The notes under the pieces: generated by a model
Seen by the model: the letters and a program-made list of their open reading frames with translations, nothing else
What the model was told of the DNA's origin: nothing
Databases searched by the model: none
Position numbers and translations under genes: made by a program
Shown: positions 3,414-55,500 of the stretch, piece by piece
Layout of the letters: the number at the start of each line of letters is the position of its first letter
Numbering within the stretch: the stretch's first letter is position 1
From: Zootoca vivipara
Lineage: Eukaryota
Assembly: GCF_963506605.1 (NCBI RefSeq)
Contig: NC_083277.1
Coordinates: 47,616,001-47,680,000, forward strand
DNA: 64,000 nt
Direction of reading: 5' to 3'

Positions 3414-5003
3414 TTTGTTGTTGTTGTTGTTGTTTAGTCGTTTAGTCGTGTCCGACTCTTCGTGACCCCATGGACCATAGCACGCCAGGCACTCCTGTCT
3501 TCCACTGCCTCCCGTAGTTTGGTCAAACTCATGTTCGTAGCTTCGAGAACACTGTCCAACCATCTTGTCCTCTGTCGTCCCCTTCTCCTAGTGCCCTCAA
3601 TCTTTCCCAACATCAGGGTCTTTTCCAAGGATTCTTCTCTTCTCATGAGGTGGCCAAAGTATTGGAGCCTCAGCTTCACGATCTGTCCTTCCAGGGAGCA
3701 CTCAGGGCTGATTTCCTTAAGAATGGATAGGTTTGATCTTCTAGCAGTCCATGGGACTCTCAAGAGTCTCCTCCAGCACCATAATTCAAAAGCATCAATT
3801 CTTCGGCGATCAGCCTTCTTTATGGTCCAGCTCTCACTTCCATACATCACTACTGGGAAAACCATAGCTTTAACTATACGGACCTTTGTCGGCAAGGTGA
3901 TGTCTCTGCTTTTTAAGATGCTGTCTAGGTTTGTCATTGCTTTTCTCCCAAGAAGCAGGCGTCTTTTAATTTCGTGACTGCTGTCACCATCTGCAGTGAT
4001 CAAGGAGCCCAAGAAAGTAAAATCTCTCACTGCCTCCATTTCTTCCCCTTCTATTTGCCAGGAGGTGATGGGACCAGTGGCCATGATCTTGGTTTTTTTG
4101 ATGTTGAGCTTCAGACCATATTTTGCGCTCTCCTCTTTCACCCTCATTAAAAGGTTCTTTAATTCCTCCTCACTTTCTGCCATCAAGGTTGTGTCATCTG
4201 CATATCTGAGGTTGTTGATATTTCTTCCGGCAATCTTAATTCCTGCTTGGGATTCATCTAGTCCAGCCTTTCGCATGATGAATTCTGCATATAAGTTAAA
4301 TAAGCAGGGAGACAATATACAACCTTGTCGTACTCCTTTCCCAATTTTGAACCAATCAGTTGTTCCATATCCAGTTCTAACTGTAGCTTCTTGTCCCACA
4401 TAGAGATTTCTCAGGAGACAGATGAGGTGATCAGGCACTCCCATTTCTTTAAGAACTTGCCATAGTTTGCTGTGGTCGACACAGTCAAAGGCTTTTGCGT
4501 AGTCAATGAAGCAGAAGTAGACGTTTTTCTGGAACTCTCTAGCTTTCTCCATAATCCAGTGCATGTTTGCTATTTGGTCTCTGGTTCCTCTGCCCTTTCG
4601 AAATCCAGCTTGCACTTCTGGGAGTTCTCGATCCACATACTGCCTAAGCCTGCCTTGTAGAATTTTAAGCATAACCTTGCTAGCGTGTGAAATGAGGGCA
4701 ATTGTGCGGTAGTTGGAGCATTCTTTGGCACTGCCCTTCTTTGGAATTGGGATGTAGACTGATCTTCTCCAATCCTCTGGCCATTGCTGAGTTTTCCAAA
4801 CTTGCTGGCATATTGGGTGTAGCACCTTAACAGCATCATCTTTTAAAATTTTAAATAGTTCAGCTGGAATATCATCACTTCCACTGGCCTTGTTATTAGC
4901 AGTGCTTTCTAAGGCCCATTTGACTTCACTCTCCAAGATGTCTGGCTCAAGGTCAGCAACCACACTACCTGGGGTGTACGAGACCTCCATATCTTTCTGG
5001 TAT
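3414..5003 (-). mobile_element. 5'-truncated RTE-BovB LINE; RT-domain ORF open from the truncation point to the stop at 3434
   Basis: RT motifs FIDYAKAFD, GVRQGCILSP, YADD; BovB C-terminus VHGVTKSRTRLND; (CAA)n tail; near-identical to 38582-41422. Confidence 0.98.
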
Positions 5004-6086
5004 TTAGGAGGTAGCAATTCTGAGCAAAGAAGGGGTGAGGAAGGAGATGCTTAATTCTTCTCTTGCAAGCATTTTCCCTCTCAAAATTGCTTCCTCCCCC
5101 AAGGTTCCTGATGCACGTTTACACATTTTGAAGGAAAGAATTAAGCACCTTCCGCCTCTGGCACTTCTCCACCCCAAATGTTCCACTTCCCAAACTGCTA
5201 TTCTTTACAAAAAGTGGCTGCTGTTGGGGCTTTAAATGGATGCAGCTTCCAATGTGTACTTTGCCCCCTTCCCCTCCTATACACTCACAGGAAATCTTAT
5301 AGAAAAGAGCCCAACAGGAATCACAAGGGGTGTCTTACGGGGAATGTGAGGTGTGATGTAAAGCTATTTGAGTACAGAGTTCTGCCTCTATAGTAGCTTA
5401 AGTGGGACCCTGCCAAGCATATTTAATGCAAGCCATTTAAAGACAGCCAATCCAATGGGTTTAGTAAACCTCTGAGCATGGATTTATGTTGACTCCTTCC
5501 TTTCACCCCTCCCCTACAAACAAACAATAAATCAAGTTTTAGAACCAGCATCTTTTGAAGAAGTGCAAATCATGTAAACAGGCTGTAGTGAAAACAGTAT
5601 GCTGCCGTTACTTTAATGTGAAAGATTAAGAACCAATTAAGAACTAATGTTTCCGTGCACTTCCACTCTGAATCATATTGACATTACTCAGCATTTTCTC
5701 TCAAAGTTCCCAGTGGATCAAGCAAGTGGAGTGGAAAGGGGTGCACATCCCATCTTGAAGCTGAACACTGCCCAACAGCTTATCAACTTGGAAGAACAGA
5801 ACTTGATGCTATATATGCCAGCATCAGCTTTAAAATTAAGATGTCACATATTTCAGGTGGAATGCAAAGGGTAGTCAGCATTTCAAAGGACATGTTGTTG
5901 CATGTTATAGCTCACTTGCCAGATTTTTTACGAAAGGTAGTGACGCAGAGCAAATCAGTGTCCCAGGTAACAGTAAACTTGTCCTTTCAGTGTCTCTCAA
6001 GCATGCCTCACATATGACCCTCCTTTTCTGGAGCTTTTCCATTTGCATGACACTTGTCACAATTAATAACAACAAGATCACTAATA

Positions 6087-36257: not shown

Positions 36258-37049
36258 TGCATTTAATGTAAAGTTAGAGGTCATTATATCTGGGGAGAAC
36301 CCCTCCTTCAATTACTGTCCCTTTGCCTCCACATGCATATTATTGATGCATCTTTACTCACAAGTAAGTCCCACAGAATTCAAATAAATGTGTGTAGGAT
36401 TAGAAGCCTAATCTGATCAGCAAACATTTTGTTTGTTTGCTTTTAGCAAATCAATATCCGTTCAGAAAGAAATATTTTGCCTGCACAAAAACCCTTGGAA
36501 ATGAATTATTGTCCATTGGTTATAGCTTCTTGCCACTCCTGCTTTCTTAGAGATGGGAAGAAATGCAAGAACCTGCTGGATCAAGCCAAAGGCTTATCTA
36601 GTCCAGCATCCTGTTCTTGGAGTGGCTGTGGGAAGCAGTTTCCTTTACGCTAAAGTTGCTCCATCACCTTGGTCACTTGCATTGCCCTTGCCTGAACTCT
36701 GCAATAGCCTTTTTGAGGTGAGGTGACTAAAACTGTACACAGAACTCCCAGGTTCTCTTGCATCACAGAGTTATGTAACGGTATTGTGATATCAACAGTT
36801 TTATATTAAATCCCTTTGCTAATCATCCCTTGCATGGAATTTGTCTTTTTCACACTGGGTCAACATCTTCACTGAGCTATTCACTATGATGTTAACTGCA
36901 GCCCTGCAGCCCATATGCACAATTACCTGAGAATAAGCCTCATTCATGGATCAATGCCTTGTCGTGGCGAAGGGGCTTGAATAACTCAGAGAAGCTATGA
37001 GCTATGCCATGCAGGGCCACCCAAGATGGACAGGTCATAGTGGAGAGTT

Positions 37050-40000
37050 TTGACTAAACGTGATCCACCTGGAGAAGGAACTGGCAAGCCACTCCAGTAT
37101 CCCTGCCAAGAAAACTCCATGGACAAAGACAACAGGCATATAAAAGTTATGACGCTGGAAGATGAGCCCCTCAGGTCGGAAGGCGTCCAACATGCTACTG
37201 AGGAAGAGCGGAGGACAAGTACAAGTAGATTCAGAGCTGATGAAGCGGCTGGGCCAAAGCCGAAAGGACGCTCAGTTGCGGATATGCCTGGAAGCGAAAG
37301 GAAAGTCCGATGCTGTAAAGAAAAATATTGCATAGGAACCTGGAATGTAAGAACCATGAGTGGAGGTAAGCTGGATGTGGTCAAAAATGAGATGACAAGA
37401 ATAAATATCGACATCCTGGGCATCAGTGAACTAAAATGGAAGGGAATGGGTGAATTCAGTTCGGATGACTATCATATCTACTACTGTGGGCAAGAATCCT
37501 GTAGCAGAAATGGAGTGGCCCTCATAGTCAACAAAAGAGTGGCAAAAGCTGTAATGGGATGCAATCTCAAAAATGACAGAATGATCTCGATACAAATCCA
37601 AGGCAGACCTTTTAACATCACAGTAATCCAAGTTTATGCACCAACTACCGGTGCTGAAGAAAGTGAAATTGACCAATTCTATGAAGACCTACAACACCTT
37701 CTAGAAATGACACCAAAGAAGGATGTTCTTCTCATTACAGGGGACTGGAATGCTAAAGTAGGGAATCAAGAGATAAAAGGAACAACTGGCAAGTTTGGCC
37801 TTGGAGTTCAAAATGAAGCAGGGCAAAGGCTAATAGAGTTCTGTCAAGAGAACAAGCTGGTCATCACAAACACTCTATTCCAACAACACAAGAGACGACT
37901 CTACACATGGATATCACCAAATGGACAGCATCGAAATCAGATTGATTATATTCTCTGCAGCCAAAGATGGAGAAGCTCTATACAGTCAGCAAAAACAAGA
38001 CCTGGAGCTGACTGTAACTCAGATCATCAGCTTCTTATAGCAAAATTCCAGCTTAAACTGAAGAAAGTAGGAAAAACCACTGGGCCAGTAAGATACAATC
38101 TGAATCAAATCCCTTATGAATACACAGTGGAAGTGAGGAACAGGTTTAAGGATTTAGATTTGGTGGACAGAGTGCCTGAAGAACTATGGATGGAGGCTCG
38201 TAACATTATACAGGAGGCAGCAATGAAAACCATCCCAAGGAAAAGGAAATGCAAGAAAGCAAAATGGCTGTCCAACGAGGCCTTACAAATAGCGGAGGAG
38301 AGGAGGCAAGCAAAATGCAAGGGAGATAGGGAAAGATACAGGAAACTGAATGCAGATTTCCAAAAAACAGCAAGGAGAGACAAGAGGGTCTTCTTAAATG
38401 AGCAATGCAAAGAAATAGAGGAAAACAATAGAATGGGGAAAACCAGAGATCTGTTCAAGAAAATTGGAGATATGAAAGGAACATTTCGTACAAAGATTAC
38501 CATAATCAAGGACAAAAGTGGTAAGGACCTAACAGAAGCAGAAGACATCAAGAAGAGGTGGCAAGAATACACAGAGGAATTATACCAGAAAGATATGGAG
38601 GTCTCGTACACCTCAGGTAGTGTGGTTGCTGACCTTGAGCCAGACATCTTGGAGAGTGAAGTCAAATGGGCCTTAGAAAGCATTGCTAATAACAAGGCCA
38701 GTGGAAGTGATGATATTCCAGCTGAACTGTTTAAAATTTTAAAAGATGATGCTGTTAAGGTGCTACACCCAATATGCCAGCAAGTTTGGAAAACTCAGCA
38801 ATGGCCAGAGGATTGGAGAAGATCAGTCTACATCCCAATTCCAAAGAAGGGCAGTGCCAAAGAATGCTGCAACTACCGCACAATTGCGCTCATTTCACAC
38901 GCTAGCAAGGTTATGCTTAAAATTCTACAAGGCAGGCTTAGGCAGTATGTGGACCGAGAACTCCCAGAAGTGCAAGCTGGATTTCGAAAGGGCAGAGGAA
39001 CCAGAGACCAAATAGCAAACATGCGCTGGATTATGGAGAAAGCTAGAGAGTTCCAGAAAAACGTCTACTTCTGCTTCATTGACTATGCAAAAGCCTTTGA
39101 CTGTGTCGACCACAGCAAACTATGGCAAGTTCTTAAAGAAATGGGAGTGCCTGATCACCTCATCTGTCTCCTGAGAAATCTCTATGTGGGACAAGAAGCT
39201 ACAGTTAGAACTGGATATGGAACAACTGATTGGTTCAAAATTGGGAAAGGAGTACGACAAGGTTGTATATTGTCTCCCTGCTTATTTAACTTATATGCAG
39301 AATTCGAGGGGTTCCGGTTTCCGCCTGCAGGAATGGCGGACCTGTTTTCCATCTCTCTGACCTTTGTAAGGAATTTGGCGGTTGCTAGGGGAGTAAATGG
39401 CAACCCCCTACCCTCTCCGGGGGTTACGGAGAGGGGCCGCTGGCCCGCGATGCCCCCAGACCCACTCCGACTGTTTTTGGAGTGGGGGGAGCTTGGGCTG
39501 AGCACTTACAAGGGCCAGGACTCCCGGACGCTAATCTGCATGGCGGGGATTTCCATGGTTAAAGAAGATAATTAGGCTTAAATCTATGGACATACTTCAG
39601 AAGGAGGGAAAGAAGCGCTGTTTACTGCTGAGAAATTTATGCTGCCGAGTGAGAGGAGTCAAAGATTGTACTGCATCTGGAAGAAGGATTGATGGGGACG
39701 GAGCGATAAGGGGAGTGAGTTTTTATTTTATTTTTTTTCTTCATATTGTTGCCTCGTACCTTCCCGGACGCGATGTCCTGGCTTGTTTGGAGTGAAAGAG
39801 AAGCAAAAGACTGTGTGAGTTGAACCTTATAACTGTTGTTACTGAGCATATTTTTTTAAAGATGTGGAGTTGCCGATGAGAAAAGCCCCCCCCTAGTCGG
39901 ACGGAAGGAGTTCTGAATGCGTTCGGAGGATTTATGAGCTGTGACGCACTTTAAATTGGAGCAGCGACCTGAAGCTAAGTTCAGCTATAGGGCAAGGAGA

Positions 40001-41411
40001 TCCATTAATTTACCAAGAGTCTATGGTTTGATGTTTGGGTCTCCTGCCTGGAAAAGCTGTAAATTCTATAATGATCGTAAATTTTCATGGCCATGAGAGG
40101 AAAGCGAAAGTGATTTGAGCTTTTTAAGATGGCGCTACTTCGAATTGCTTCAACGCAACAGGAGCTCCATTAAGAAGATTTATGGGGAGGCTGGACTGAT
40201 TAACTCACACAGGAGAAAGAACATCTGTGAGACTTTGTTTGATATTTATATCAGCAGCTGGGAAACAATCGTGAAAGTGGAAAACATCTATGTGACTGTA
40301 AGGGGAAGATCTGGATTATTATGAACTTGAAGGACGATTTGAACTTTAGAAAAAAGACGGCAGTGGACAGTTGCGAGGAATTCCCAATTTCTTGAAGCAT
40401 GGGAACCCAAATAAAAAATTCTTTAGATGATTTGGCATAACATTCGGTCTGATTGATATATATATGTGTATAATTTGAAATATTGAATGTGATATAATTG
40501 GTTTTAATTGGAAAATTAATAAAAATATTTTTTTTTAAAAAAAAAATAACTTATATGCAGAATTCATCATGTGAAAGGCTGGACTAGATGAATCCCAAGC
40601 CGGAATTAAGATTGCTGGAAGAATTATCAACAACCTCAGATATGCAGATGACACAACCTTGATGGCAGAAAGTGAGGAGGAATTAAAGAACCTTTTAATG
40701 AGGGTGAAAGAGGAGAGTGCAAAATATGGTCTGAAGCTCAACATCAAAAAAACCAAGATCATGGCCACTGGTCCCATCACCTCCTGGCAAATAGAAGGGG
40801 AAGAAATGGAGGCAGTGAGAGATTTTACTTTCTTGGGCTCCTTGATCACTGCAGATGGTGACAGCAGTCACGAAATTAAAAGATGCCTGCTTCTTGGGAG
40901 AAAAGCAATGACAAACCTAGACAGCATCTTAAAAAGCAGAGACATCACCTTGCCGACAAAGGTCCGTATAGTTAAAGCTATGGTTTTCCCAGTAGTGATG
41001 TATGGAAGTGAGAGTTGGACCATAAAGAAGGCTGATCGCCGAAGAATTGATGCTTTTGAATTATGGTGCTGGAGGAGACTCTTGAGAGTCCCATGGACTG
41101 CAAGAAGATCAAACCTATCCATTCTTAAGGAAATCAGCCCTGAGTGCTCCCTGGAAGGACAGATCGTGAAGCTCAGGCTCCAATACTTTGGCCACCTCAT
41201 GAGAAGAGAAGAATCCTTGGAAAAGACCCTGATGTTGGGAAAGATTGAGGGCACTAGGAGAAGGGGACGACAGAGGACAAGATGGTTGGACAGTGTTCTC
41301 GAAGCTACGAACATGAGTTTGACCAAACTGCGGAAGGCAGTGCAAGACAGGAGTGCCTGGCGTGCTATGGTCCATGGGGTCACGAAGAGTCGGACACGAC
41401 TAAACGACTAA
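37050..41411 (+). pseudogene. BovB endonuclease/reverse transcriptase ORF, disrupted by the 39306-40546 insertion and a CGA>TGA stop at 40572
   Basis: ORFs 37050-39575 and 40659-41411 rejoin in frame at NLYAEF|IM; the - strand copy has CGA at the equivalent codon. Confidence 0.93.
39306..40546 (+). mobile_element. Non-coding poly(A) retroposon, probably L1-dependent
   Basis: 19-bp TSD taacttatatgcagaattc (39287-39305, 40547-40565); AATAAA plus A tail; L1-like 5' end gaggggttccgg...atggcgg; internal ORFs only ~70 aa and not L1-like. Confidence 0.85.
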
Positions 41412-42511
41412 ACAACAACAACAAGCCTCATTGAAGAGCCTCATTGAGTCTAGGCACATAATAAAAAACCTGCTAGATCAGGCCAATAGCTCATTTAGTC
41501 CAGCATCACATAATTACTATGACCCCAAGGTCTTGTTCCTGGGAAGTTACCACCAGTTCAAACTCCATGAACATATACAGGCAACTCCCCACTTAAGGGG
41601 GGTAACATTCCAGGGCCCCCCACATAAATGAAATGTGCGTAAGTGGGCAACACCCTTAGCTTCTCTTTGCAGAAACTGTTATTTAAATTCCCTGATCCTG
41701 ATTTATCTTTTGTTGTTGCAAATGTGTTTGATCCAGAGAGCCAGGCTGCAGGCGGTGTTTTTCTTTATATGTTTTAAGATGACAGGATTGCCAGTATAGT
41801 AGGTTTGTGCATCAGTGGGGTTCATGTGGAGACTGGTGACTATTTTGTTGCTTTCAGTGGTGAGGGGGACATTGAGGAAAGGGGTGCGTTAACTATCAAG
41901 GGTGCTGAGACTGCTTGCTTAGAGACTAGATTTTAAGTAAGAAGACATTAGTGTATGTGATATATGATGCAAGGCTTTGCACCGTGTTTTTTAAGTTTAA
42001 ATCAATAAGCTGTACCATATTTCGGGTGACACCTAAGAATGTTCAGATGAAGGAACACACAATGTTGATTTCCCCATTCAAAAAGAAAGAGAAATGAACT
42101 GTTGTGTTCATCTTTTGGAACAGCTGGTTTTCTGTCAGCATTTGTGGTTTTCATCCTTTGCAATGCTGTTGACACATGGTGTGGGCCAATTTTGTAACGT
42201 TATTCCCGCCCGTGGAAAATGATACTATGCACAGAATGTGACATCATTGCTTTCCGTGCCATTTGAGTGTATTTAGGAGTGATGGTGGCTTTTCACAACC
42301 CCCAGAGTTGCATCAACAGGATTTGCATCACCAGAAAATATTCCACGTTGCCCAGCATCAAAAATGCGCTTCTCTGATCTTTCCACACTGAGTTGTGTGA
42401 CTTAGAAATCATTATAGAAAGCCATATGCTAAGAAGCCACTATTTTCTTGAGTTGACGGCTGAAGATCGCCTAGCAAATGTTACAACTGAATTCTGTAAA
42501 TATGTATGATT

Positions 42512-51076: not shown

Positions 51077-52514
51077 AATAATAATAATAATAATAATAAT
51101 ATGTTATTTATACCCCGCCCTCCCCATTCAAAACTGGACTCAGGGCGGCTAACACCAATAAAATTACAACAAAACATAAAAAGCAATTAATTAAAATACA
51201 GATTAAAATACAATATTAAAATTAAAAATGCAGCCTCATTTTAAGTAGTCCATAAATCCAAGCCATGAGGGAGGAAAACACAGGGGTCAGACTAAGTCCA
51301 GCCCAAAGGCCAGGCAGAACAGCTCTGTCTTGCAGGCCTTGCGGAAAGATGACAAATCCCGCAGGGCCCTGGTCTCCTGTGAAAGAGCGTTCCACCAAGT
51401 TGGGGCCAATACTGAAAAGGCCCTAGTAGAGGCCAGTCTAGCCACCTTATGGCTCAGGGTCTCCAGAGTATTGTTGTTTGTGGACCTTAACGTCCTCCGC
51501 GGAGCATACCAGGAGAGGCGATCCCATAGGTACGAGGGTCCCAAGCCGCATAGGGCTTTAAAGGTCAAAACCAGCACCTTAAACCTGATCCTGTACTCCA
51601 CCGGGAGCCAGTGCAGCTGGTAAAGCACTGGATGAATATGATCCCGCGGCCAGGACCCCGTAAGGAGCCTCGCCGCTGCATTCTGCACCTGCTGGAGTTT
51701 CTGGGTCAGCTTCAAGGGCAGCCCCGCATAGAGTGAGTTACAATAATCAAGCCTGGAGGTGACTGTCGTATGGATCACTGTGGCCAGATCACGACGAGAG
51801 AGGTAAGGGACCAACTGCTTGATACGGCGGAGATGGAAAAATGCCACCTTAGCTGTGGCTGCAACCTGTGCCTCCATGGAGAGAGAGGCGTCAAAGGTTA
51901 CACCCAGACTCTTGACAGAAGGCGCTGGCACTAATTGAGCCCCTGCAAGAGATGGGGGTTGGCTCCCCCAACCCCATGTCGTCCCGACTCAGCCAGAGGA
52001 CCTCTGGCTTCGAAGGATTTAGCTTCAACCGGCTCCCACATAGCCATCCAGCCACAGCTTCCAAGCACTTGGTCAGTGTGTCCGGGGCTGAGGCAGGGCA
52101 GCCGTCCATCCACAGATAAATCTGGGTGTCATCAGCATATTGATGACAACCCAGCCCAAAACTCCGGACAATCTGGGCAAGGGGGCGCATAAAGATATTA
52201 AAAAGCATTGGGCCTTGCGGGACTCCATACACCAAGGAGTGCCGCGGCGACAACTCCCTCCCTAGTGCCATCCTCTGTCCCCGACCTAAGATAAAGGAAT
52301 GCAGCCATTGTTGGACCATGCCCTGAATCCCCACGTCGGCAAGGTGGTGGTCTAAAAGTTCGTGATTGACCATATCGAAGGCTGCTGACAAATCTAAAAG
52401 AATCAGCAGTCCCGACCCACCTCGATCCAGCTGTCTACGGAGATCATCTGTTAAGGCGACCAGAGCCGTCTCGGTCCCATGACCAGTGCGAAAGCCGGAC
52501 TGAAATGGATCTAG
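51077..52514 (-). mobile_element. 5'-truncated L2 LINE (RT domain to 3' end), frameshifted
   Basis: DLSAAFD, GVPQGP, YADDTQ, LKLNPSK, RLDYCN, HWLPV motifs; (AAT)n tail. Confidence 0.95.
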
Positions 52515-55500
52515 ATTAGTCCATTCCCAAGCCGTATCCAGGGCCTAGAAAATAAAAGGCTTTCCTGCATCTCCTTGCAAGCATGTGTTGTCGGAGAACA
52601 AAAGAAGGAAGAGCAAGAATTTATTTACTCCATAGCAATAAGAGTTTCCATACCATCTGCAAATTAGTATATTCAATGGGAAGCTTAAGAGTCCTGTCCT
52701 TTACTAGGGATAAATAGTATTAGAGAAAGCATAGTGATATTTACTTATGGCACAGGCTCCCAGGCACATTTTGTGCTGTCCCCAACATATTTCATTGCCT
52801 TCCACCAACTTCTGAAGTTACATAAGGTACTGTGAGAGCCAAAACATAACCATCCATCAACAATCCTAGATGACATCACTGTAAATCCAGAAACTGTATT
52901 GCCTACACTTAACCTAAGAATGAAATGGGATGGCTTGTGACCCTCCAGTTGTTACTGGACTACAGCTTCCATCATCACTCATCATTGACCACGCTGGTTG
53001 GGACTGATGGGAACTAGATTCCATCAACATCCAGAGGACCACAAGTTATTCATTCCTGTCTTAGTGAAAATAGAAAATTGTGAAATATCTCATCCCCCTG
53101 TGCTTGAATATTAAACATTAATGAAACATTCTACTTGTTGAAGTAGGAATGATTCAATATTATTATCAAATGTGTATATATTTTAGTGAGGATAGTTTAC
53201 AGTTTACAATTATCAAGCATATCTTTGGAATCTTGGTTTTTATTTCATACCAGCTGGCTAGTATATTCCTGATCTACTCATTATACCCTTTCTTCTCTGC
53301 ATTTCTTTCCCATTGGTTGGAGAAAAACCTATGAAACACTAATTACTCTAAAATTGTCCAACATTTGACTTTTGTCTATCTCTTAATTAATATCAATCAA
53401 TTTTTATTGTATATAGCCAAAGCCCTTTACAATGCATTACAGAGAATAAAAGGAAACTGGGGATATTATTTTATCATCTAAAATCATACACGTAACCTGT
53501 GGCAGTTTACAACATAAAAAGAAATTTACAACAATATTTTAAAAGACTAAAACTTAGGTAAACCAGCAATTGATAAAATTTAAAAGAATTCCAGCCTAGT
53601 AATCCCTAAAATTAATTAAAGATCACAATTTAAGGCTAATAAAAATAACCATTAATAATTCAAAGCCAGCCCACATACTAGATAAAGCATATTTGAAACA
53701 AATGGGCTTTCAAAGCCCGTTTAAAAGCCAGGACCACGACTGAAAAGGCATGTCTCTTGCACCCACCAAGCTATCTGGTTTTATTGATGGTCCAATAAAT
53801 GGGGCCTCTGATAACAAACTTGCAACCTGGCCTGGTTCATATGGATGTAAGTAATCCTTCAAATAACCTGGCTCCAACTACAGCCATGTTGAGTGGCCAG
53901 TTAAAGATGCAAAATGTGCCCTACATGCAAAACTGTAGTTCTTCAAGATTTTGGACATGCTTGAGCTCTCTGTTTTTTAATAAGATGTCAGTTTACTGGG
54001 GTTAACTAGTTGTTAGATAAGCTATAGAACACAAGGAATATCTGGAAAAGGCATTGCCCAAGCTATGAAGGGGGAAATTGCATAGCTCCGGTCCAAGCAT
54101 CTGCTTCTAAACAAGTTCAAATTTATTCACCTATTTAGAAAATGTCTTAATCACTCTATATTCAGAAGAATCTCAGGGTTTCTAAGTGTGCAAAGTGGCT
54201 ACAAGGGAAAGGGACCACATGGTGTGGCAGTGGTACTTTTGACCATGATTCATTCTCCCAGGGAGGTTCATCTGGAGCCTACTTGGATATCATTTTGGCA
54301 CCAGGTGAAGACATTTACATTTCCTCAGGCTTTTTCATTCCCTGCACATTCTCTCCCCCCCCCCCCCGCCCTTGAAAAAAGTTCCCCACCCCTGCTCTGC
54401 AGGAATACCTCTCTAGTTTTGTTCTTGTATTGATTCAGAGGGTGAATATTTTCTTATTCTGCCAGGTGTCTAGCAATTAGAAAAGTATCTGATGATTTAG
54501 TGTACATAAATCATTGCTGTCGGTTGCTAGGACACATATTTTATTGTTAGCTTTTGATGTGTTATTAAGTTGCAGTGGTAGTCAACTAAGTTTTACTCAG
54601 AGTAGATCTGTTGAAATTAGTGGACCAGTCATGCTCATTAATTTCAGTGGGTCTACTTTGAGTAAAACCTAGTTGATTACTATCCTTGGTGTTGCTTTAA
54701 TTACGTATTATTGTGGACTGCCATGGCTGCAGTAAAAAGTTGTACAGTACTTGCTAAAAGATCGATTTAAATGTTTTTTTTCTTTTTTAAAAAATACGTG
54801 CTATTTAGATATTTCCTCATAAACCTGCATTTAGAAGGTGAAAAATCTCCATAACATTTTATCACACTTTTTAACATTCCATGTGCTTATTCAAATTAAT
54901 CTGATGTGGATTATTTACCTCCAAAGCTAACAATTAGGATGGATAGGTTAAAGAAAAGGCTAATGCATATTTAACAATGGAATGTGGAGTTCTGAACTGA
55001 CATCCTTGATTGTGCACCTGCAACCAGACAATAGGCAGACTACAAGTATATGATGGTTACACATTACACATAGAGTAATGAACCTGTGTTAAGCTATTTA
55101 TGTATGCTTTGCAGTTGCAGTCCAGGAGGAAGAGTGGAATAGTGTATAGTATGTTTCTGGAAAGTTCAGGTTGAAACCCTATTTTCCCCACAGTCTGTTG
55201 TATGACACTGAAGAAGTCAGCTTAGCGGCCCATCACTGCCTTCAAACCAGCTCCTTACAAATGTTCTGAACATAGAGGAGAGACATGACATTTTGATGGT
55301 AGGCTCTGTGCCCAACCTACATGCATTTGTTTCAATACAACCAGCAACCCTGCAGGGATGTCTAAACTGTAGTTCTCCAGATGCTGAATTACAACTCCCA
55401 TCAGCATGACCAATGGTTAGGGATGATGGGAGCTGGCAGTCTAGCCAACATGTTCATGAGATCTGAAAGAGCCCTCCTGTATTTCTGCAAGGGCATTGGA

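Follow-up and report, generated by a model that had tools for sequence, protein, structure and literature searches.

Known parasites of LINE-1 (L1) are short interspersed elements (SINEs), SVA-like composites and HAL1 elements that keep the first open reading frame (ORF1), and derivatives without any ORF are known from other clades of long interspersed elements (LINEs). In the accessible portions of the papers cited here, to which all our statements on the literature refer, reports of ORF-absent bipartite LINEs are limited to RTE, Ingi, Vingi and R2 (PMC5786205); for short internally deleted elements (SIDEs), CR1 is added, and they are called rare, insects and a trypanosome being named (PMC6740152). 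Here, we describe an insert of 1,241 nt (39306-40546, + strand) found in a window of 64,000 nucleotides from Zootoca vivipara (the window designates this whole stretch, to which the coordinates refer). This insert is a member of a large family of protein-free retroposons, which likely has an L1-type internal promoter, likely depends on intact L1s for the enzymes that copy it in trans and probably descends from the 5' and 3' ends of an L1.

Like the SIDEs RIME, NARTc, Bov-A, RTESINE, R2 SIDE and Persaeus, the element encodes no protein, has LINE-type ends, is presumably transcribed by RNA polymerase II (Pol II) and would be mobilized in trans (PMC5786205, PMC7245038, PMC6740152). As in Persaeus, its middle part has no clear origin. 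It differs from SIDEs by its L1 signature, its length of 1.24 kb (271-317 bp for Persaeus) and the absence of any alignment left to a partner. HAL1 is also a non-autonomous derivative of the L1 clade but retains ORF1, whereas the element has neither ORF1 nor any shared ORF (PMC5786205, PMC5753468). SVA and LAVA are, like the element, long non-coding retroposons moved by L1 proteins, but no hexamer, variable number tandem repeat, Alu or endogenous retrovirus part was seen in the element, whose head is of L1 type (PMC5753468). Furthermore, the 5' untranslated region (UTR) of lizard clade-1 L1s shares with the element the start GACTTCCGGT...ATGGCG (consensus GACTTCCGGTGN8ATGGCG), its first ~120 nt being conserved; the spacer is longer in the element and no ORFs follow it, and the description of these UTRs gives no RNA fold in the part accessible (PMC5381506). 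The tRNA-derived SINEs of squamates (Squam1-3, Sauria) are likewise non-autonomous squamate retroposons but, unlike the element, have a tRNA head. The element is also far longer than typical SINEs. The literature searched (subscription papers, Dfam and Repbase lie outside that search) holds, in its accessible parts, no description of the family or of a fold in the 5' end of lizard L1s, and an automatic repeat-library entry for the family is quite possible.

The insert is flanked by perfect 19-bp target-site duplications (TSDs, 39287-39305 and 40547-40565). It interrupts the frame of a LINE in which Pfam itself gives only endonuclease (EN) and reverse transcriptase (RT) and which we take, as a preliminary description of this locus did, to be of BovB type. 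Several features listed in that description were recovered: the TSD at a TTT/AA-like site, with T's before the 5' copy, the AATAAA (at 40518, followed by T9 and A10) and the G-rich start, which reads GAGGGG, then TTCCGG at 39312 and ATGGCG at 39333. Older lineages of the family start with GACTTCCG. Among the 103 full-length copies with TSD, the leader is GG in 27 and GGG in 15, a variation that would result from start-site wobble and a cap-derived G. The body carries GTGAGT at 39715 and a YY1-like AAGATGGCGC near 40126 (YY1 core motif taken from PMC5381506).

A genome-wide search returned 1,444 candidates, the best 40 of which were scored and are all full-length at 99-100% identity; as anticipated, the TSDs are distinct in the 30 of 30 copies fetched. 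The first 30 nt have 570 exact matches in the genome, a 3' 34-mer has 1,015, the core motif 1,048 and a marker of the youngest subfamily 98, against 0 in reversed-sequence controls; the element is thus not single-copy. Two copies are identical along 1,235 nt. The longest ATG frames of the window copy and its relatives span 51-152 aa on either strand (80 aa in the window copy), no ORF is common to the lineages, and the indels do not respect the frame, 84 of 367 having a length divisible by three. Searches of the element with L1 proteins (tblastn and hmmsearch) gave no match, in agreement with the reported lack of ORF1- or ORF2-like frames; a genome search with PF02994 is uninformative, its control being as silent as the search itself. 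The ORF1p that defines HAL1 is therefore not encoded. By its dispersed copies with their own TSD and A tail, its L1-like target and the presence of active L1s, the element resembles L1-mobilized retroposons. The best reading is that it behaves as an ORF-less bipartite LINE with an L1 helper, an assignment made by likeness, the partner L1 not being found among the sampled loci.

A set of 130 distinct copies, picked by similarity and motif, yielded TSDs for 118, which measure 16-19 bp in 77; those of L1s measure 15-18 bp in 29 of 37 (the same nick rule being applied to the element and L1 sets). The target site YT|RAAA is the same as that of the L1s of this genome, with base frequencies at positions -2 to +4 within about 0.13 of those at 37 L1 sites: 0.56 vs 0.54 for T(-2), 0.72 vs 0.62 for T(-1), 0.53/0.37 vs 0.54/0.38 for A/G(0) and 0.66 vs 0.78 for A(+1). 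The genome is rich in intact L1s: 75 matches include dozens with an open ORF2 of ~1,259 aa, and 1,672 RT-motif sites are present. Because TSD length and target site match those of local L1s, we infer with good confidence that L1 mobilizes the element in trans. This supports the earlier proposal of a non-autonomous, non-coding element with L1-like ends.

The first ~260 nt are predicted to form a conserved RNA domain, which is supported by covariation. Four serial hairpins had been proposed here: all eight arms lie where they had been placed and hairpins 2-4 are kept, but hairpin 1 is unsupported (80.6% paired in 19 members, no two-sided changes, the same bases pairing at long range in the consensus) and the head appears as one nested domain. 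For 19 members, RNAalifold predicts a single nested domain of 60 pairs, 16 of them changed on both sides. Outer helices link the start to about 39550, and a long-range helix (39361-39370 with 39505-39514), covarying at 7 of 9 pairs, closes a multiloop. In this consensus, 96.1% of cells are paired (41-60% in slid controls) and 64 are two-sided vs 24 in shuffled alignments, none of 500 shuffles being as high, although these ignore the relatedness of the members. The covariation that the preliminary description suggested checking is found in hairpins 2 and 3 (Table 1) and is absent from hairpin 1, the arm bearing hairpin 4 and the 3' hairpin. One-sided changes give G-U on the + strand, which indicates sense RNA. 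Moreover, 20 further copies fitted to the head model are 87.9% paired (70.5% in the weaker outer helix), and de novo folding of 14 of them, from a lineage about 45-50% distant, yields the same architecture. The 5' 253 nt of the window copy fold at z -2.35, 2 of 200 shuffles being equally good. Outside the head, the family consensus folds weakly. The 3' hairpin reported earlier has both arms in place but is reduced to 4 pairs with no two-sided change in 16 members, and shuffled sequences fold better than the 3' 231 nt (z +2.14). The window element has no match in Rfam (best E 0.25), hence no known ribozyme fold at its 5' end.

In the mechanism that we propose, Pol II would start at the TTCCGG motif and produce a capped RNA polyadenylated past AATAAA, the first 260 nt of which would fold into the predicted multiloop domain. 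This RNA would capture L1 ORF2p in trans. The folded head may be an RNA module of L1 5' UTRs, retained as an aid to ORF2p capture or RNA survival; such a role is plausible and is proposed tentatively. Target-primed reverse transcription at YT|RAAA, presumably by the L1 enzyme, would then account for the signature observed: a TSD that mostly measures 16-19 bp, additional G's at the 5' end and an A tail. Alternatively, the head may act at the level of DNA or transcription (promoter architecture, pausing or escape from silencing) instead of in the capture of L1 proteins, an explanation that competes with the capture step only and to which we give a modest chance. In line with such an action, L1 5' UTRs serve as internal promoters (PMC5381506) and the head of the window copy is GC-rich with 13 CpG. 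However, the two-sided changes and the sense-strand G-U favour an RNA fold; they do not separate a role in the nascent RNA from one in a ribonucleoprotein. A bolder version of the capture proposal has, in our opinion, a modest chance of being right: the element would be a protein-free parasite of the L1 clade, long persistent in squamates (~50% divergence at constant length), and its covarying 260-nt head would be an undescribed domain common to the 5' UTRs of lizard clade-1 L1s, enabling ORF2p capture in trans as a Pol II counterpart of the domain of Alu that binds the signal recognition particle.

Descent from L1 was considered by comparing ends at 80 L1 loci, a limited sample made of 60 of the first 100 of the 1,672 RT sites and 20 of one clade. 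Seventeen of 18 TSD-bounded candidates, full-length L1s of different families, begin with a CTTCC start, the eighteenth (L086) being a false TSD call. In their first 275 nt, 13 of 17 are predicted to fold into a long-range helix that closes two neighbouring hairpins and one long arm, against 5 of 340 shuffles; different L1 families have this predicted architecture in common despite low identity, the 17 heads (L071-L127) folding at z -1.3 to -6.6. Furthermore, for 16 of the 17 L1 heads, the pairing profile of the element gives a better fit to the forward sequence than to its reverse, and for 15 of the 17 a better fit than to its reverse complement. The 5' end of the L071-clade L1s has the same hairpin-3 loop on a different stem, with covarying pairs of its own. 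At the other end, GGAAGTC is present in 16 of 38 otherwise dissimilar L1 3' UTRs (L071-L127; shuffle mean 0.66), and a motif matching it lies 120-149 nt before the end in older lineages of the element. The alignment to autonomous L1 UTRs suggested earlier gave a match for the last 43 nt, to the 3' end of the L071 clade at 91% (E 5e-8), and brought out no parent at the 5' end. Hence, the element probably descends from L1 by loss of both ORFs; because no parent L1 was found in the 80 loci, this is given as the best reading of these sequences and not as a demonstrated origin.

Besides the limits of the L1 sample, several observations weigh against this reading. The topology descriptor behind the 13 of 17 heads was made after viewing the folds and the L1s are related, so that its p-values are overstated; it is passed by 3 of 19 single-sequence folds of the element, and plain alignment of the 17 L1 heads gives 0 consensus pairs. 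In the element itself, one of five measures of covariation, that of further pair types, is not above shuffles (447 of 500). The terminal 43-nt match is AT-rich, and nhmmer, blastn, tblastn, hmmsearch and a covariance model (R1) found nothing significant beyond the last ~45 nt in 60-80 L1 loci, R1 giving no match in a 5' UTR. At the 5' end, alignment with the L071 clade scores in the twilight zone (z 2.4-3.9 vs block shuffles, an unrelated family reaching 2.5). A decayed ORF2 C-terminus as source of the body was hinted at by soft scoring (post-selected, 60 loci) but was rejected, since stricter scoring (z 1.0-1.7), protein HMMs and profiles did not bear it out. Lastly, in about 6% of each of three RNA runs from one study, the best-supported 5' loose ends lie in upstream flanks of single loci, which indicates read-through, and the reads show no start peak.

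The absence of an alignable L1 parent among the 80 loci and of an assignable origin for the middle 700 nt would also suit an element mobilized by L1 without deriving from it, with a head taken from a host Pol II transcript or a structured non-coding RNA, as in an SVA-like composite, and L1-like ends that are convergent or acquired. This is unlikely, as the start motif, the order of hairpins, the hairpin-3 loop and the 3' motif all stand at L1 positions; nor did Rfam give a match or the reads spliced junctions. Mobilization by a co-active BovB/RTE machinery, for its part, is very improbable. BovB is young and abundant, it and the element are nested reciprocally (in the window and at locus L217), and RTE gives rise to bipartite derivatives, being the clade best known for them (PMC5786205). 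However, the element ends in an A tail, not in (AAC)n, its TSDs and target match those of L1, for BovB, credible TSDs were recovered at 7 of 22 ends and measure 10-15 bp (a spurious one at L156 was excluded), and blastn with masked loci detected no similarity to BovB. Still less credible is a SINE transcribed by Pol III and carrying an atypical head: the element is non-coding, with a GC-rich structured head and an A tail, but it is 1.24 kb long and lacks the small-RNA head with Pol III boxes of SINEs, the window copy having no tRNA, 5S or 7SL match and, as stated from the outset, no box A or B (regex search). In addition, runs of four or more T terminate Pol III transcripts, and such runs, present from 39345 onward, would stop the polymerase.

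The completeness of copies was surveyed on one contig, C1, through its first 100 listed 3' ends. Of these, 87 extend to the 5' domain: 49 pair with the 5' 30-mer (at 1,163-1,185 nt in 48 cases and at 3,248 nt in the other), another 34 contain the core motif, and alignment shows a further 4 to be nearly complete. The remaining 13 are truncated. None of the 37 unpaired 3' ends fetched is joined to L1 ORF2. All 17 core-motif matches on C1 without the 3' marker are family members that end within 1.45 kb, none of them leading into ORF1, and on this contig no copy continues into L1 ORF1 or ORF2. Hence, the idea that the element is the 3' UTR of a 5'-truncated L1 (184-762 nt long in the L1s sampled) or a single processed pseudogene, to which the 13 truncated ends could be related, is refuted for the C1 sample by these results and by the common fixed 5' end, and is practically untenable. 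The 3,248-nt case (L037) was rejected as an ancestral long form, since a different LINE of 2 kb is nested in this family member. This LINE (L037:721-2790) is 5'-truncated and has a (TAAG)n tail; its RT frame is open over 654 aa, with Cys/His residues clustered at the C-terminus, and it may be RTE-X-like.

The family is old and comprises several parallel subfamilies, and the window copy is very young; the lineage has thus propagated independently for long. More distant relatives, reached via loose ends of RNA reads (56 matches, 30 fetched), form seven groups that are 15-37% apart, two of which are young (15 copies at 1.4% and 6 copies at 1.3% mean distance). A search with a further copy, L212 (671 candidates, best 40 scored), led to lineages 45-50% distant from the window copy that still measure 1.22-1.29 kb, with TSDs of 14-18 bp in 11 of 13 copies (L237 left out). 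The length remains 1.2-1.45 kb and the sequence non-coding throughout, with lineage divergence up to about 50%. For instance, the L153 lineage is a young 1.45-kb subfamily with a fixed internal duplication of ~190 nt that repeats the YY1-like motif. Nesting is frequent (L001, L003, L011, L026, L217, L218): copies of the element lie within BovB or L1, and an older member itself contains a BovB. The claim that the element is younger than BovB is therefore right for the window copy, which lies inside BovB, but not for the family: since a BovB lies inside the older member L217, the two families overlap in time. At L004, the A tail of the element is followed by ~30 extra nt, a second A tail and the TSD, which resembles a short 3' transduction.

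A long-lived ORF-less lineage of L1 type would fill a gap among L1 parasites. It can be viewed as a natural deletion experiment in which the retained parts would mark the cis elements needed for copying by L1: besides the start motif and the 3' motif, these are the 260-nt fold with its covariation and an overall size of ~1.24 kb. L1 proteins favour their own RNA, a cis preference, and the element makes testable how a non-coding RNA overcomes it. A conserved RNA fold in the 5' UTRs of lizard L1s is also indicated, and the young copies are candidate population markers.

In the RNA runs, ~2,000-2,700 reads per run fall on the insert plus its BovB flanks, mostly at 90-99% identity. In run X13, one read orientation dominates across the first 900 nt (this is read orientation and not transcript strand). 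Joints of DNA contigs across the insertion are not informative, the host LINE being multicopy. About 480 X13 reads at 39757-39791 come from a diverged family member, which suggests one highly expressed copy. No splice joints were found at 39715 in the three runs (about 6% of each). In the L1s L071, L088 and L033, the 5' UTR has a GTGAGT that is followed, at least ~500 nt further on, by a pyrimidine tract with AG, which may mark an intron in the 5' UTR of this clade.

Table 1. Parts of the inserted element and of its host LINE in the window
Feature	Position	Strand	Basis or remark
Host BovB-type (RTE) LINE, endonuclease and first RT part	37041..39305	+	Pfam EN + RT
TSD, 5' copy, 19 bp	39287..39305	+	Repeat comparison, 100% identical; T's stand before it
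G-rich leader, from TSD to TTCCGG	39306..39311	+	Varies among copies
Predicted nested RNA domain	39311..39569	+	Consensus fold with two-sided changes; distant lineage alike
L1-type start TTCCGGT ... ATGGCG	39312..39340	+	Motif positions and lizard clade-1 consensus
Hairpin 2, conserved loop GGGAGUA	39377..39408	+	99.4% paired; two-sided changes in 1/9 pairs
Hairpin 3, loop GGGGUUA	39411..39435	+	Two-sided changes in 2/5 pairs
Short, nearly invariant hairpin (family core motif)	39434..39446	+	Consensus helix 9; absent from the preliminary description
Long arm with the previously described hairpin 4 at its end	39447..39503	+	94.7-100% paired; two-sided changes 0
Non-coding body	39570..40390	+	No source sequence assigned
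L1-like 3' end	40391..40527	+	Older lineages have GG(A/G)AG(T/C)C, the window copy GGGAACC; terminal GGAAAATTAATAAA
T9 + A10 tail	40528..40546	+	Sequence
TSD, 3' copy	40547..40565	+	Repeat comparison
Remainder of host LINE with (AAC)n tail	40566..41425	+	In-frame stop directly past the insertion

The in-frame stop of the host BovB lies at 40569-40574, most reads having a C at 40572. Further RT-bearing fragments are located in the window at 3434-5050 and 51891-52544, both on the - strand.

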